DNA of 43,294 nt from the IMG/VR virus record IMGVR_UViG_2609460053_000008. One strand, 5' to 3'. A program made the translations under genes and the position numbers. Below, piece after piece: positions 2,604 through 9,226 of the stretch (within the stretch, counting starts at the first letter, position 1; the number at the start of each line of letters is the position of its first letter). The notes below the pieces were generated by a model, which did no database searches, was not told the origin of the DNA, and was given only the letters and a program-made list of their open reading frames with translations. The stretch comes from a virus (lineage: Duplodnaviria; Heunggongvirae; Uroviricota; Caudoviricetes).

Positions 2604-3656
2604 TCAGGAGCCGATATATTCTGGTTTCATATCTGTCAGTGTCGTTTTATACGCCTCATATAATTCTCCCAGATGTGGTCGTGCAGCATTCAGCGTATTT
2701 TCCAGAGCAATAAATTTTTGTTCTGCTTCTGGATCACCTGATGAAGGCAGGTCATTTATCATCTTCTCAATACGGGCAATAGCATTGAGACGGTGATGAC
2801 GCTGAACCACTTTTCCTTTAAGTTCTGTGTAGAGAGCGCCAAGTGTATTTTTATGATCTTCCACTTCCTGGCGAAGTGCTGTTGTTTCTCCGGTGCTTTG
2901 TGCCTGCTCAATACGTTCACGGAAAGCACTGATCCAGTTTTCCCCGGCATCCTGCTCAATAATTGTTGTTTCACGTTCCGCACGGCAGGCGGATGTGTTT
3001 TTATGTTCCTGAACCGGATTAATGATTTTTTCCTGTGGTTCGTCCAGTTCGTCCCGGGTGTACACTCCAAGAATCACTTCAGGGCAATAAAGGCGCGCCC
3101 AGCGTTTCAGAGCCAGATAGGCAAGCTGCTGGCGAGGATCATCGGCCCATAACGTTGAGTTACGTGTTCTGGCCTGCGCCAGAAGTAACTCCAGTACGCG
3201 TGGCTTGCTCTCTCCGCGTAGTGTTGCCTGGACGCGAACACCGATCCCGTTTTCATCGGCCAGCTTCCAGCCAGGTACACGATATTCTTTCCCCTTGTCG
3301 TTCTTCCTGATTTCAAATTTCCCGATAATTTTTTCCCACGGCCCGAACCAGTCATATTCAATACGCCCGGTTAGCGGCCCACGAGTACTGATTACGGCAT
3401 TAACCAGTTGCGCTTCATATCCGAGCACACCATTCACAACGAAAGTTTTCTGAGCTACTGCGTAAGGGTTCATTTGCCACTGCATCGCCTGCATGGTGAT
3501 GGCCATGCAGTCTGATGGATTTCCCCGGAGGTGTTCCGGTACAGTAGCCATGCCGGAAGCCATTACCTGGGAAAATGTCTGAATTGCAGCCAGGGACTGA
3601 GGGCTGAAAACCGCAACATTAGAGTTAATATTTTCTTGTTGAGTTAATTCGTTCAT
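2604..3656 (-). CDS. Putative single-strand annealing recombinase (RecT-like position, downstream of recE)
   Basis: 350 aa; start sits 12 nt after recE stop in the same operon; family assigned by position only, sequence not confidently matched. Confidence 0.5.
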   Translation of the reverse strand: MNELTQQENINSNVAVFSPQSLAAIQTFSQVMASGMATVPEHLRGNPSDCMAITMQAMQWQMNPYAVAQKTFVVNGVLGYEAQLVNAVISTRGPLTGRIEYDWFGPWEKIIGKFEIRKNDKGKEYRVPGWKLADENGIGVRVQATLRGESKPRVLELLLAQARTRNSTLWADDPRQQLAYLALKRWARLYCPEVILGVYTRDELDEPQEKIINPVQEHKNTSACRAERETTIIEQDAGENWISAFRERIEQAQSTGETTALRQEVEDHKNTLGALYTELKGKVVQRHHRLNAIARIEKMINDLPSSGDPEAEQKFIALENTLNAARPHLGELYEAYKTTLTDMKPEYIGS

Positions 3657-3667
3657 TGTGTCCTTCC

Positions 3668-6600
3668 TCAGATGCTCAGTGCTTCAAGACGACGAAGATC
3701 AAAGTCGTTTAATTCGTCGGTATAACTTTCGGTAATCGGTGCTGGCCAGTTGTTTGTCTCCAGAGCTTCGTTTATCTGTCGTAGTGTCCGGCGATATTCC
3801 TGTCGACCAAGTTCCAGGAGTTCCTGCGAGGCTTCCACGACGGCCACCCAGTGATAGCCAGCATCTTTGTTGACGAAGATCCAGAAAAATTTGTCCAGGT
3901 TTGCCACATCGCAATACATTGCTGCGCTGAGGTGATAATCACGTTCAATAATTTCACGGTGCAGGCGATCTTTCAGTCGTTCCTGTCGCACATAACCGAG
4001 GCTGACTGACTTCACGTCGGCGCAAATGCTTTCGTATGGCAGCCGGATTTCGATATCAGGACGGACCCTGATTTCCAGCCCGGTTTCTTCATCAAACCCG
4101 AAATAGCTGATTTCAGATTTGCGATCCGGGTGGTTGAGTAGCCTTGCTGCATCGGTATTGTTTTGCAGTGCCGCGTGAATATTTTTTGCCTGTTCATACA
4201 TATCCGGACTGATAAACGTTTTCCCGGCGTTTTCTTCTTGCTGGCGTTTTTGCCAGTCCTCCAGCGTCACCAGTTCCGGGCGAATTTTCCGCGCGATTTC
4301 GGTTAATTGCTCTTTTGTGCCACTGATGTTGTAAGGCAAAGATTTAGCACGTTCTTTTTTTGCCAGTTCTGGGTCTACAGCTTCAATTTGATCCAGAAGC
4401 TGCTCCCGTGCTCCACTGGTTTTCAACAGAGGAGGGAGGCTTGCGTTGTATTCTTTAATACAGGCTTTCATTGCTGATGCTGTGTGTTTTTCCCCCTCAG
4501 GAATACGCCGAAATTCCACCGGAAGCGAACCGTAAAGGATGCCTGTTTCTTCGGCCCCAGCACTTATAGACAGTGGCTGTATAAGAGTGCTGTTGTAGCT
4601 TTCGATCCACTCTTTCATCTGCTCTGGTGTCATCAGTGCTGGCAGACTGGCATTGTGTTTTTTAATGATGGCGATCAGTTCGTTAGAAGTAGTAACCACA
4701 TATTCAGGAACCGGTACCGGAATGGCATATTCATCAGCGAATTTATCCGTTTCCAGAACATAGCTGTGAATGATCCGCCCACGCAGCAGTGCATCACTTT
4801 CCTCGTTCGGAATAGTTCCGGCAATGTGCCGCCCGTGGTAATACATCAGGCTGATACGGGCATCCTTCAGCATCGTGCTGCTTATTCCGTTGGCGGAGTG
4901 ATAAACCTCGTTCGGGAGGTTTTCATAGCGGCCAGGCTCGAAATATGATGGCCACATGATTTCAGTTACTACAGGTGCTGTCGCTTCACCAGTTTCATCA
5001 CCGCAATCGCGATGCAGATCGCTGCCAGCATTCTCATTGTGCGGATGTTCAGGGCCTTCCATTTCCTCCGGCTCTTTTTCCTGAGATTCATCCAGATTTT
5101 CTTCATTAAAGGTTTCCTGATACGTTGCGTCGCCCATCACCGCGCCACAGTCAGGACAGTTGCCGCCGCCAGTCTGACCGCAGGCGGTGCAAACTTTCTC
5201 CGTTTCCTGTTGTTGCACTACTGGCTCAGGCTGTTTCGTTTCTGGCTCGTTTTGTTGCGTATTTGGGTCGTTCTGTTCCGTTTCTGGCTGATTCTGGTAC
5301 ACAGAATCGCGGGTCTGGATCCCCTTAACCCATTTCGGATCATTCGGGTCGCTAATCCCTTCAACAAATTCTCCGCGAGAGGCAGCCAGTAATTTGTCTG
5401 CATCGACAGGATTTTTGGGCGGAATGTTTTTCCGGGCTTCATAGAGTTCTGCCCGCAGTTTCTGATATTTCGCATCAACAGAATTTACCTGTGACTGAGC
5501 ATCCAGCGGCTGCGTGTCCTGATGATGTTCAGTTGCATCCGGTTCCACTGTTTCAGCCGTTGCCTGTTCATCTGCCATTGCGCAAGATGGTTGCAGTTTT
5601 TCTTCATCATCCTGTTTTTCTTCTTCTGTTACACGCTGCGGCATCGGGGCAGAGGAACGACCGCAGGCAATATCCACGATTTCTGGATCAGGGTTGGCAT
5701 GATCAGTTTCAGTCAGTACTTTGTTAAGATATTCAGTGACGTGTGCGGGGATAACCTCGATCCCAATTGGTGCTTCTTTTACGGACGCAACCACGATGGC
5801 GCGGGAATAATCCAGCCCGCCAGGCATGGTGATGAATTTGTCGCGGAAAACAGAAAAGGGCGGTTTATTTTCAGCGATAATTTCCTCGACACGTTTAGCG
5901 TGTGCCGGATGAAGGTTATAAATGTCCACGTCCATTGAACGAGCCAGTACGCCAGTCGCTACGTCGCGCGCCAGTGACGTCAGATCGTGAACGAAACCTT
6001 CGCCGCGATCGGTGAGGTTCCCGCCGCCAGCATTAGCGCCGGAAGCCGTGCGCGTGATGCATGAAACACGATTTCCTTTCATCCACTCTTTTGTCAGCAG
6101 ACCGCGATCGGTGTAGTCTGCGTCCAGGTATGCTTCGAAAAAAGCAGTCATCAGCCCCAGGCTTGAATTGCCTGGATTAGGGAAAACTCTGTCAGTATCA
6201 CGCACCAGTTTGTGGAGATCGCGAATTTCCAGCGGGTCGAGCAGGCTGGTTTTGTGGGAAACAGCCAGGGCAGTAACAGCTGGTAGTTCTTCAGCTCGTG
6301 CAATGTGTAATGCCTGTAGTTCGTCGCGTGAAACGTGCGTTACCGGTTTTTCGCTGCCGTGTTGAGCAAGCCAGCGAATGGGCAGCTCCTGACCGGAAAT
6401 CGGGAGTAGCATATTCTCCTCAATCTCCGTCATGTCTTCGCCATTAACATTGGTATTGTCAGTGCTGGCTGGTTTGTCCTGCGCAGAGGATGAGGGCGTG
6501 ATAAATACCATTGTGATGCCATCTTCCCCGCCTTTTTCGTAACGGTTGCAGAATTCCGTATCAAATACGCCTTCTGGTGGAAGGTCATCAACAACGGGCA

Positions 6601-6796
6601 AATTGACGCGAACAGGTTTTTTAAAGTCATCTTCATCGTAGCCAGCATCGTCAATCGCAACAGCACCACGGGAGATGGCAATGGATAATTTTTTCGCTTC
6701 AGCCCAGTAGAAACCGCCTTTAATACCGAGACGTTTTCTTACTTTGTCATTTTTTGCTTCGTAATACAGTGGGTAAACTTGTTTATCGGTGCTCAT
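3668..6796 (-). CDS. recE: Exodeoxyribonuclease VIII (RecE), 1042 aa
   Basis: Long stretches match recalled Rac RecE ([43 protein letters not shown]...); acidic/Q-rich low-complexity linker. Confidence 0.85.
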
Positions 6797-7171: not shown

Positions 7172-7245
7172 GTTTTTCTCCTTAATTAAGGTTGAGCGAA
7201 TCCCTGCCATTGCTGGCATAAATTCAGTTTCGGATAGTCAGTTAA

Positions 7246-7416
7246 TTAAAGTTCGTGTGCCATCTGGTCTTTTTCGGCACAGATTTCACTACAATATTTT
7301 TTCATTTCCGTCGTTGGTATAACTCCACGCATGAAATGAAGTGGTCTTGTAATGATTTTGCTCTCTTCAATTTCTTTATTGCAAAGGTGATAAGCACATT
7401 TTATTTTCTTAGTCAT
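7246..7416 (-). CDS. ydaE: YdaE-like small zinc-binding protein (56 aa)
   Basis: Hand-translated (below the ORF-track cutoff): [56 protein letters not shown]; start overlaps kilR stop (TAATG). Confidence 0.55.
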   Translation of the reverse strand: MTKKIKCAYHLCNKEIEESKIITRPLHFMRGVIPTTEMKKYCSEICAEKDQMAHEL

Positions 7417-7637
7417 TACCATGACTCCGCCTTTACAGGTAAACCATCACGACCGAGGAAGACTCTAATCATGCAGTCAGAAATGCATGTTTTTGTAGTC
7501 AGGCTACGAATATAAAGTTTTCGCTTTTTAATATTGTTTGCCGAGGCGATATATGTCCGACCTTCATGAAGAACATAATCGCCAGGGGTCACACACTGAC
7601 GTGGTATTTCATCAGTTCCGAAGTGATGAGCAATCAT
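7416..7637 (-). CDS. kilR: KilR-like cell-division inhibitor
   Basis: [44 protein letters not shown] matches recalled Rac KilR. Confidence 0.7.
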
Positions 7638-8032
7638 AATTATCTCCATTTTTACAAATGAATTTTGTCGATGCGGTGCCTGGTGCCTCCAGGTGACGTT
7701 AACCAGTTAACAATTAACGCCGGATAATCCACCCATAACACTGATGCTTTTAACTGTGCCGCGTGCGCTTAGCCGCATTCACCGCATCACAAAATTCACT
7801 TTAAAAAGGGGCGGCAGGGCAGCCACGGAGTAGAACTGATGCCGCCAAAGACTACACATAGCAATGTCGTTATTTACAACCGGAGGCGCACTCCCACCAT
7901 TTAAATTTAACAGACAAGACCGACTCTTTATGAATACCGGAAATGCGCCTTCGTGTTGTGCGCCTGTCTTTTTACCACTTCAGGCTCGGTGGTATACTGG
8001 AGTTCTCACACAACCAGTAATAAGGTATTCCG

Positions 8033-8227
8033 ATGGATAATAAAGACAAAGCCTGGCTACTTGCTTTAGCTTTCAGCATCAGATCGCAGCGAGAAACAAC
8101 TCATCAAGAATTTTTCTCGGAAATCGAGAATGCTGAGAATGAGTTTTTGTCACTACTCAATGAACGTGATGCTAAAAAAAGCGCCGATTCACTTAAGGCT
8201 TGGGCGAAACTAGGCTCTTCAAAATAA
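8033..8227 (+). CDS. Hypothetical protein (64 aa) in immunity region
   Basis: ORF with upstream GGTATTCCG then ATG; convergent with the 8193-8411 gene. Confidence 0.35.
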   Translation: MDNKDKAWLLALAFSIRSQRETTHQEFFSEIENAENEFLSLLNERDAKKSADSLKAWAKLGSSK

Positions 8228-8411
8228 TTGCTTCTGTAGCGGCATGAACAACTGTTTTTGCCGCCTCTTCAACTTCCTTGTCTGGACGACCAGCCTTTAC
8301 TTTTTCTGCAATGACATCCAGCACAGTTGGAAGAACCTTGCTAATAAGCATGGCTGCCACATCTTTGCTGCACAATTGACCGTTAATAACAACCAGATCT
8401 TCACCAACCAT
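8193..8411 (-). CDS. Hypothetical protein (72 aa), first gene of leftward transcript
   Basis: ATG preceded by AGGGGA at about 8 nt; AACAC-N5-GTGTT operator-like palindrome at 8604-8618 upstream. Confidence 0.45.
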   Translation of the reverse strand: MVGEDLVVINGQLCSKDVAAMLISKVLPTVLDVIAEKVKAGRPDKEVEEAAKTVVHAATEAIILKSLVSPKP

Positions 8412-8654
8412 CTTTTTTCCCCTTAACGCCGGGTGGCGGAACGTTTTATCTACTGCGCTTTGTATCAATCAACAACTGCCGTCATGTTCGTATGCCTCAG
8501 GCTGGCTACTTAGCCCTGTTCAGTGGCTGGATAACTCGAGGTATTGTCCTGCCGTTCTCTGGTGGGGCGTTGTTTGGATATGCTTATTAAACACAATGCG
8601 TTTTCTTATGTCAACACGAAATGTGTTTTATGGTGAGTGTCATATGATGATGGT

Positions 8655-8710: not shown

Positions 8711-9130
8711 TTACTCCGGTGGGGGATTATCTTTAAGCCTGCCTCTCAAATATTTTTCTACATACTCATCGATTTCTTTTAGCCGGACTTCAAATAGCTC
8801 AATCATTCGTTGTTGTTCTGAGCCCGGTAGCTGGTTAAACAACTCAAGAAGTTTTCGTTGGGATTCATTTAACCACAATTCAGAAGATTCCTGTTCTCCA
8901 AATAGGAGCTCAGGAGGAGATATGCCAAGTGCCTTTCCCAATACGACAGCGTCATGCACTCCAACATTTCTGCTGCCCGCCTCATAGTTACCTATACGCG
9001 ATTGCGTCCATCCGCAGATTTCAGCAAGTTTTCCTTGAGATAAACCAAGCTTCTGCCTGCGCTCTTTAAGACGCATTGCAATTTTGTCATTGAGCCTACT
9101 AGCGGCAATTTTTTCGTTTTCTTTTTCCAT
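8711..9130 (-). CDS. Prophage repressor, HTH XRE family, no S24 peptidase domain
   Basis: 139 aa; HTH LKERRQKLGLSQGKLAEICGWTQSRIGNYEAG; divergent from the Cro-like gene; no Ala-Gly / Ser...Lys autocleavage module. Confidence 0.8.
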   Translation of the reverse strand: MEKENEKIAASRLNDKIAMRLKERRQKLGLSQGKLAEICGWTQSRIGNYEAGSRNVGVHDAVVLGKALGISPPELLFGEQESSELWLNESQRKLLELFNQLPGSEQQRMIELFEVRLKEIDEYVEKYLRGRLKDNPPPE

Positions 9131-9141
9131 TGCATCCTTGT

Positions 9142-9202
9142 ATCACGAATCGTGATTTATATAAAACACAAAACAGCTTGACCATATAACACAAGGTGTG
9201 TT
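9142..9202. promoter_or_regulatory. Divergent promoter/operator region: palindromes ATCACGAATCGTGAT (9142-9156) and AACACAAGGTGTGTT (9188-9202); candidate -35 TTGACC at 9178-9183
   Basis: Perfect inverted repeats between divergently transcribed repressor and cro-like genes. Confidence 0.5.
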
Positions 9203-9226
9203 TAAAATTGTCATCGGAGGTTTTCA

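Follow-up and report, generated by a model that had tools for sequence, protein, structure and literature searches.

Two small genes converge on one another between the leftward operator and kilR of a lambdoid prophage, at a position where lambdoid phages often keep superinfection-exclusion or abortive-infection genes. The locus raises the question of whether these genes are exclusion genes in kind as well as in position. The stretch of DNA that was analysed (the window) is 43,294 nucleotides long, and its host element is a Rac-type lambdoid prophage of E. coli. The rightward gene, here called B, occupies 8033-8227 on the plus strand and encodes 64 aa from an ATG start, with an AAGG 8-11 nt on the 5' side of the start codon. 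The leftward gene, A, occupies 8193-8411 on the minus strand and encodes 72 aa from an ATG with AAGGGG upstream; its mechanical open reading frame extends to a TTG at 8468. The genes overlap at their 3' ends by 35 bp (8193-8227, both strands), and no intrinsic terminator lies between them. Both open reading frames are present where the original prediction had placed them, and RefSeq annotates both as hypothetical proteins in a 100% identical prophage (WP_001419881 for B and WP_000232637 for A). No paper mentions either of these accession numbers. A 1121-bp query around A and B is 100% identical to a prophage of E. coli FDAARGOS_1289.

Because short open reading frames are common by chance, coding selection was tested in codon alignments of ten diverse loci, with the overlap left out. 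For both A and B, dN/dS is approximately 0.1-0.3 and third-position changes are dominant. Against the Klebsiella, Raoultella, Citrobacter and Edwardsiella versions of the two genes, dS is saturated. The start codon and ribosome-binding site of B, and the motifs DKAWLL, EFL.EVE and W.KLGS, are kept across the 48 homologue clusters of the B profile. A and B are both real protein genes under purifying selection.

In the RefSeq annotation, the neighbouring genes on one side are int, xis, a DUF1187 gene, ralR, recT, recE, a racC-like gene, ydaE and kil. On the other side are two "hypothetical proteins", a helix-turn-helix repressor (8711-9130, minus strand), a cro-like gene, ydaT and the replication genes. 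The recE homologue (3668-6796, minus strand) encodes 1042 aa, compared with 866 aa in K-12, and has a long acidic, low-complexity middle. The gene order in the Rac prophage of K-12 is kilR, kilS (an sRNA), sieB (plus strand), ydaF (minus strand), ydaG (minus strand) and racR. Window positions 7207-7993 match the K-12 ydaE-kilR-kilS region at 87%, positions 8407-8569 match the leader upstream of ydaG at 75%, and the interval between 7993 and 8407 has no match to K-12 Rac. Because the homologous flanks match and the interior does not, a cassette containing A and B (approximately 7962-8406) replaces sieB-ydaF-ydaG. Within the Rac backbone, B sits where sieB does and points the same way. The expectation that this slot is one used by exclusion genes is therefore borne out, both by the replacement of sieB-ydaF-ydaG and by the region upstream of B, which is homologous to the P22-like sas/sieB control region. 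The cassette is rare, with only 25-30 carriers among 5426 complete E. coli genomes.

The leftward promoter, PL, lies at 8586-8628 on the minus strand. Its hexamers, as read from the sequence, are a -35 TTGACA (8614-8609) and a -10 TTTAAT (8591-8586) separated by 17 nt. They are flanked by operator repeats of the type AACAC-N5-GTGTT (8590-8604 and 8613-8628), which recur in the PR region between the repressor and cro genes (9142-9157 and 9188-9203). The earlier description of this site as a PL-like operator was essentially right. A is the first open reading frame downstream of PL. In the one metagenomic lineage represented by loci L019 and L020, a gene for an N-like antiterminator (5372-5614, minus strand; a weak hit to Pfam N_peptide) lies between PL and A, which argues that A is not the antiterminator analogue. 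A weak terminator-like hairpin is located just before PL (8545-8569, plus strand). It would end a B transcript only after an antisense run across all of A and the leader, and, read on the minus strand, its stem would be located at the 5' end of the transcript from PL. Within 8033-8411 no terminator-like site is found on either strand. With no terminator and a 35-bp coding overlap, the transcripts of A and B would overlap.

A and B occur together, in convergent orientation, in all 54 related loci from six genera, one of which (L018) is decayed. These loci comprise 18 that were found via individual proteins and 36 IMG/VR contigs that were found via A. The overlap is 29-35 bp in representative loci and 83-104 bp in remote pairs. 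The only broken pair is in L018 (5001-5600), where only 32 residues of A remain and B terminates in AWDNK in place of the conserved W.KLGS, a motif that is encoded in the A/B overlap. Remote A homologues (~30% identity) lie just 3' of a prophage repressor gene and face a convergent, overlapping small open reading frame that is B-like or YdiH-like. In a Rac-like prophage of O157:H7, a distant B-like cargo gene follows an identical upstream element and faces a 120-aa protein with an A-like C-terminal half and a YmfJ-like N-terminus; hhalign gives probabilities of 58% and 82% for these assignments. In O157:H7 strain 2571, part of the fused A-type gene is an incomplete pseudogene in RefSeq, yet a 120-codon frame is open. 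The fusion of the A-family domain behind a 42-residue YmfJ-like N-terminus is seen in some prophages, as in protein P0074 (114 aa) and in locus L062 (~2750-3110, minus strand). The neighbours of the cassette vary and include repressors that are helix-turn-helix only or LexA-like, the N-like gene in one lineage, and differing downstream genes. Since the neighbours vary and the pair stays, it is the cassette that is conserved and not its surroundings. The strict co-occurrence of A and B could partly stem from the physical overlap of their reading frames and not from a functional link.

The region upstream of B contains a 59-nt element (7962-8020, minus strand). It lies on the strand of the PL transcript, where it is antisense to the predicted B promoter and to the 5' UTR. 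The element is approximately 95% identical across cassettes whose A and B proteins share only 42-70%. Read on the minus strand from 8020 to 7962, it aligns with the last ~60 nt of the sas RNA of phage P22, the sequence of which is given in Table 2 of PMC13397905 (2026). The 3' block is identical to P22 sas at 34 of 36 positions over ACCACCGAGCCTGA.GTGGT.AAAAGACAGGC, and an equivalent hairpin lies upstream of this block. In the window, the hairpin is formed by 8019-8014 and 8000-7995, and two further stems, S1 (7994-7989/7978-7973) and S2 (7985-7981/7966-7962), are interleaved, all on the minus strand. The interleaving of S1 and S2 suggests an H-type pseudoknot. The hairpin arms covary (TACTGG/CCAGTA, TGCTGG/CCAGCA, TCTTGG/CCAAGA, TTCTCG/CGAGAA and TCCTTAT/ATAAGGA, with loops of 13-14 nt) in at least five variants, which were tabulated by script with no statistical test. 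The closing pair of S1 is U-A, U-G or A-U, S2 is GCCUG/CAGGC or GCCCGG/CCGGGC, and some of the change in S1 and S2 is compensatory. No Rfam family corresponds to the element.

Three other identities for the element were considered and rejected. The spacing is wrong for a LexA box or an immunity operator, and the element is conserved across prophages with unrelated repressors. No U-run follows the stems on either strand, as an intrinsic terminator would have. A put-like antiterminator of the HK022 type was dropped after the match to P22 sas was found.

The element is far more widespread than the cassette. It is present without A and B in 472 of the 5426 E. coli genomes, and approximately 9% of complete E. 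coli genomes carry it, including K-12 in its e14 element. Its left part is found in 140 phage records, many of them P22-like. It always precedes a rightward gene within the PL operon. In K-12 e14, it lies directly upstream of ymfI with 93% identity (L061, 3424-3497). Elsewhere the gene behind it encodes a 63-aa protein (in a UPEC prophage), a zinc-ribbon-like open reading frame (in strain SSGw1) or other small rightward frames. Loci L062, L063, L064 and L065 are further examples. In phage SPN9CC, it is found approximately 100 nt upstream of sieB, and gene N converges on sieB. The similarity at sieB-type loci is limited to the left 36 nt of the element, with no obvious equivalent of the -10.

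A consensus scan predicts a sigma-70 promoter for B at 7971-7998 on the plus strand (TTTACC and TATACT separated by 16 nt), with an upstream TG that makes the -10 an extended one. The predicted transcription start is near 8005. The pattern TG-n-TATnnT is kept in nearly all variants of the cassette and upstream of e14 ymfI. Since the -10 hexamer and the conserved hairpin overlap, part of the conservation of the promoter may be due to the RNA element. The L019/L020 lineage has a different region upstream of B, with two TTCCACAGTCAAA direct repeats around a GATAAT -10.

The 380-bp region upstream of B, in which a 36-codon open reading frame had originally been noticed, is not empty; its minus strand contains a DicF-family sRNA in addition to the sas-like element. 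The sRNA lies at 7809-7860 and extends to approximately 7897 (60.9 bits in Rfam, compared with a gathering threshold of 48), has its own terminator (7826-7811) and is the homologue of the annotated kilS in K-12 Rac. Because this sRNA and its terminator lie between the cassette and kil, leftward transcription must pass the terminator to reach kil and recET. A near-threshold Rfam match to STnc100 (7630-7819, minus strand; 44.3 bits, compared with 47) covers the 5' leader of kil, and a part of this STnc100-like stretch, GCGCTTAGCCGCATTCACCGCAT, abuts the cassette directly in Klebsiella prophages that do not have the DicF-like sRNA. The 36-codon frame exists (7930-8040, plus strand), within a 58-aa frame that begins at 7864. 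It is probably not a gene, because it has no ribosome-binding site, crosses both the sas-like element and the promoter of B, and is missing from most of the other settings in which the cassette is found. K-12 Rac has a counterpart (L002, ~5520-5620) with the same start and the same first ten codons (M..GNAPSCCA) followed by a different tail; conservation of the DNA beside kilS probably explains this common start.

Neither protein resembles a known exclusion protein by sequence or by fold. A and B have no hits above threshold in Pfam or NCBIfam, and A, B and the 36-codon frame have none in PADLOC-DB 2.0 at E <= 1. When the A and B profiles are compared with PDB sequences, the best E value is 0.27. 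A word-indexed homology search returns close relatives only. Pfam, NCBIfam, PADLOC and fold searches give no toxin or antitoxin family or fold for A or B, and no likeness to a known exclusion, abortive-infection or toxin-antitoxin protein is found in PADLOC, Pfam, NCBIfam, PDB or BFVD. A relationship to SieB, YdaF or YdaG of K-12 Rac was rejected since BLASTP gives only noise (E > 4 against SieB), and a relationship to YmfJ and YmfI of e14 was rejected since there is no similarity.

A belongs to phrog_23495, a PHROGs family of unknown function. Its homologues are found in Escherichia, Salmonella, Klebsiella and Raoultella, and an exhaustive HMMER profile search of 1.84 billion representatives recovers only 16 clusters, none of which has a Pfam domain. 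The AF2 model of A (pLDDT 80) consists of an N-terminal beta-hairpin followed by two long amphipathic helices in a helical hairpin. The protein is mildly hydrophobic and amphipathic, with a GRAVY of +0.39 and a borderline Kyte-Doolittle peak of 1.61. Foldseek finds no fold match for A (best E 2.3 against PDB and 0.21 against BFVD).

B belongs to phrog_22868, also a family of unknown function, and its profile range extends to Citrobacter, Edwardsiella and Superficieibacter. A search of genome contigs with the B profile returned nothing. The AF2 model of B (pLDDT 81) has helices at residues 3-17 and 24-62, the first short and the second long, with a loop between them. B is hydrophilic (GRAVY -0.73), has no transmembrane segment (maximum 19-residue hydropathy -0.13) and contains no internal start able to give a meaningful product. 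Against PDB, the best Foldseek E value for B is 8.4, which is not significant.

The one family link is between B and YdiH (PF15930), an uncharacterised 62-aa enterobacterial protein of the same length and register. The B-family profile aligns with K-12 YdiH in hhalign with a probability of 68% and an E value of 4.9e-5, residues 10-57 on residues 10-57, in register. Remote B-like partners match PF15930 in register with E values of 1e-4 (22.6-22.8 bits), and the family member P0067 scores 13.4 bits. The B protein of the window has no hit to PF15930, and all scores in the family are under the Pfam gathering threshold of 27 bits. The motifs LA.EF/YL, sP..yL, E.eF..LL and W.LG are common to YdiH and B. 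Taken together, these alignments weakly suggest that B is a distant relative of the YdiH family. Because that family is itself uncharacterised, the link says nothing about mechanism. Unlike B, chromosomal ydiH does not have a sas-like element, and no A-like partner is found beside it. The earlier statement that neither protein has a nameable family was nearly right, since PHROGs gives only families of unknown function, but it needs this qualification for B. Profile comparison and structure prediction, which had been proposed as checks, leave A with no known fold or family, and B with the YdiH profile match and no fold match.

The closest known counterpart in arrangement is the sieB/esc/sas system of P22, with sieB also in lambda and Rac. 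The sieB gene of P22 is expressed from the prophage and aborts the growth of superinfecting relatives but spares P22 itself (PMC10883804). The sas RNA of infecting or induced P22 switches the translation of sieB, which allows the phage to escape its own exclusion (PMC13397905, PMC7067206). Like sieB, B occupies this slot of the PL operon and would be transcribed against PL. A gene in the PL direction converges on sieB as A converges on B, and the strand opposite to the region upstream of the rightward gene is in both cases homologous to the 3' part of sas. B is placed as sieB is: it is in the PL operon, it opposes PL, it has its own predicted promoter, and a sas-homologous element is antisense to its 5' region. 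The proteins are different. SieB is 162-190 aa long and hydrophobic (maximum 19-residue hydropathy 2.19), whereas B is 64 aa long, soluble and YdiH-like, and the two share no sequence. An internal in-frame product of the Esc type is absent from B, and the cassette has instead a separate, co-conserved gene in the PL direction, A.

Similar arrangements are found in K-12. The ymfI-ymfJ pair of e14 and the sieB-ydaF pair of Rac have overlapping convergent transcription in RNA-seq and have been called convergent excludons (PMC12288877). In both, as at A/B, the order is a repressor, PL, and a leftward gene that overlaps a rightward gene (by 63 bp and 4 bp, respectively). In e14, ymfJ is leftward after the repressor gene ymfK and converges on ymfI, and late in the SOS response its induction is much stronger than that of ymfI (PMC11002266). 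No sequence relationship links YmfI and YmfJ with B and A, except that the N-terminal 42 residues of YmfJ occur elsewhere fused to the A-family domain. A and B, like these pairs, are convergent neighbours with no terminator between them, as expected of a convergent excludon. Two other familiar layouts differ. Type II toxin-antitoxin genes form co-directional operons, whereas A and B are convergent and have no match to a toxin or antitoxin family or fold. In lambda, the OOP RNA is transcribed convergently across the 3' end of the early gene cII in the immunity region, so that, as at A/B, the two directions of transcription work against one another; OOP is, however, short and non-coding and has its own terminator. 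At the present locus a conserved protein is encoded by the opposing transcript, and the antisense element would target the 5' end of that gene and not the 3' end.

These comparisons lead to a tentative reading, to which we give somewhat less than even weight, in which A and B are a conserved two-gene cargo cassette that sits in the sieB slot and is wired like sieB, with B as a factor of the lysogen and A as its antidote. The slot, the antisense element and the lack of a terminator between the genes suggest expression of B in the lysogen and of A on derepression. In the repressed prophage, PL would be off and B would be expressed from the predicted extended -10 promoter that the cassette brings with it. 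Loss of the repressor, or infection, would activate PL and lead to synthesis of A, the first gene of the PL transcript. The PL transcript, with no terminator in its path, would read antisense through all of B and its 5' UTR, and it would carry the stable element that is homologous to the 3' part of P22 sas. Transcriptional collision, together with antisense pairing over the ribosome-binding site of B, would then turn B off. The net effect would be a convergent excludon combined with a sas-type switch, in which A and B are mutually exclusive, with B on in the lysogen and off in the lytic cycle. By analogy with SieB, B would be a lysogen-expressed factor of the exclusion or abortive-infection type that harms lytic growth, and by analogy with Esc, A would be the early antidote of the phage. 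The unbroken evolutionary association of A and B makes it most likely that the two proteins act on each other. An exclusion or abortive-infection role for the pair, as the original prediction had proposed from its position, is a reasonable inference from these analogies.

The roles may also be reversed. In this mirror-image arrangement, A would be a harmful host-takeover protein like Kil, and constitutively made B would neutralise leaky A, in the manner of a toxin-antitoxin pair. At the RNA level, the B transcript, antisense to A and running towards PL, would damp leaky leftward transcription, and on induction the sas-like RNA would remove B and free A. This arrangement fits the data almost as well as that with B as effector and A as antidote, and on balance we consider it rather unlikely. 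It is consistent with the strict pairing of A and B and with the hydrophobic, amphipathic character of A. The location of A also fits, as it is PL-proximal and just upstream of the DicF-like sRNA and kil, both of which are cell-division inhibitors. With no terminator after B, the B transcript would cover all of A, and an antisense antitoxin is already in use in the same prophage family, that of RalR. However, A and B resemble no family of toxins or antitoxins, toxin-antitoxin pairs that act protein on protein are not typically convergent, and in the sieB/sas system of P22 the rightward, lysogen-expressed gene is the effector and not the antidote.

A second alternative, which we regard as a little more doubtful again, is that A and B are unrelated small accessory genes held together by the overlap of their frames and by a slot defined by recombination. 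The 59-nt element would then be a generic device of the slot, for regulation or insulation, and its cargo incidental. The element does precede cargo that is unrelated (ymfI, the UPEC 63-aa protein, the SSGw1 frame, and sieB of the P22-like and Rac type) and is far more conserved than that cargo, and the overlap makes recombinational separation of the genes costly. This explanation does not readily account for pairing that holds down to ~30% identity in A, with overlaps of 29-104 bp and differing flanking genes. The single decayed locus also speaks against it, since there B has lost its conserved C-terminus along with the decay of A, as does the A domain that still faces a B-like gene when fused to a YmfJ-like N-terminus. 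It is very improbable that the B frame is untranslated and the region acts only as RNA (as an antisense partner of A or as the template of the sas-like RNA): B is short, its transcript would be antisense to A, and no part of the cassette is better conserved than the flanking RNA element, but the 52 non-overlapping codons of B are clearly coding by the substitution pattern given above, its start codon, ribosome-binding site and three motifs persist, and its structure model is confident.

The regulatory logic proposed for the cassette, a lysogen factor (B) paired with an antidote (A), is already known in kind. What is new is the cargo, an obligate pair of genes for which YdiH is the only recognisable relative. 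The sas-like element is also reused widely, which earlier work does not seem to have noted. A broader claim, that A and B are a two-protein exclusion or immunity system with B as effector and A as antidote and that the sas-like RNA is a portable switch by which lambdoid prophages across Enterobacterales silence varied lysogen cargo (sieB, ymfI, B and others) as lytic growth begins, is an ambitious one that we put forward as possible, at low confidence. If it is true, the sieB slot would be a general plug-in socket and not the curiosity of a single gene. The antisense-RNA switch would let a prophage carry genes that benefit the lysogen but endanger its own lytic cycle, and A and B would be a new type of cargo for this socket, in which the antidote is encoded as a separate early gene. 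It would also provide a first testable hypothesis for several orphans, namely ymfI and ymfJ of e14, the YdiH family and the two PHROGs families to which A and B belong. Because the element is present in K-12, its control logic can be tested in a standard laboratory strain.
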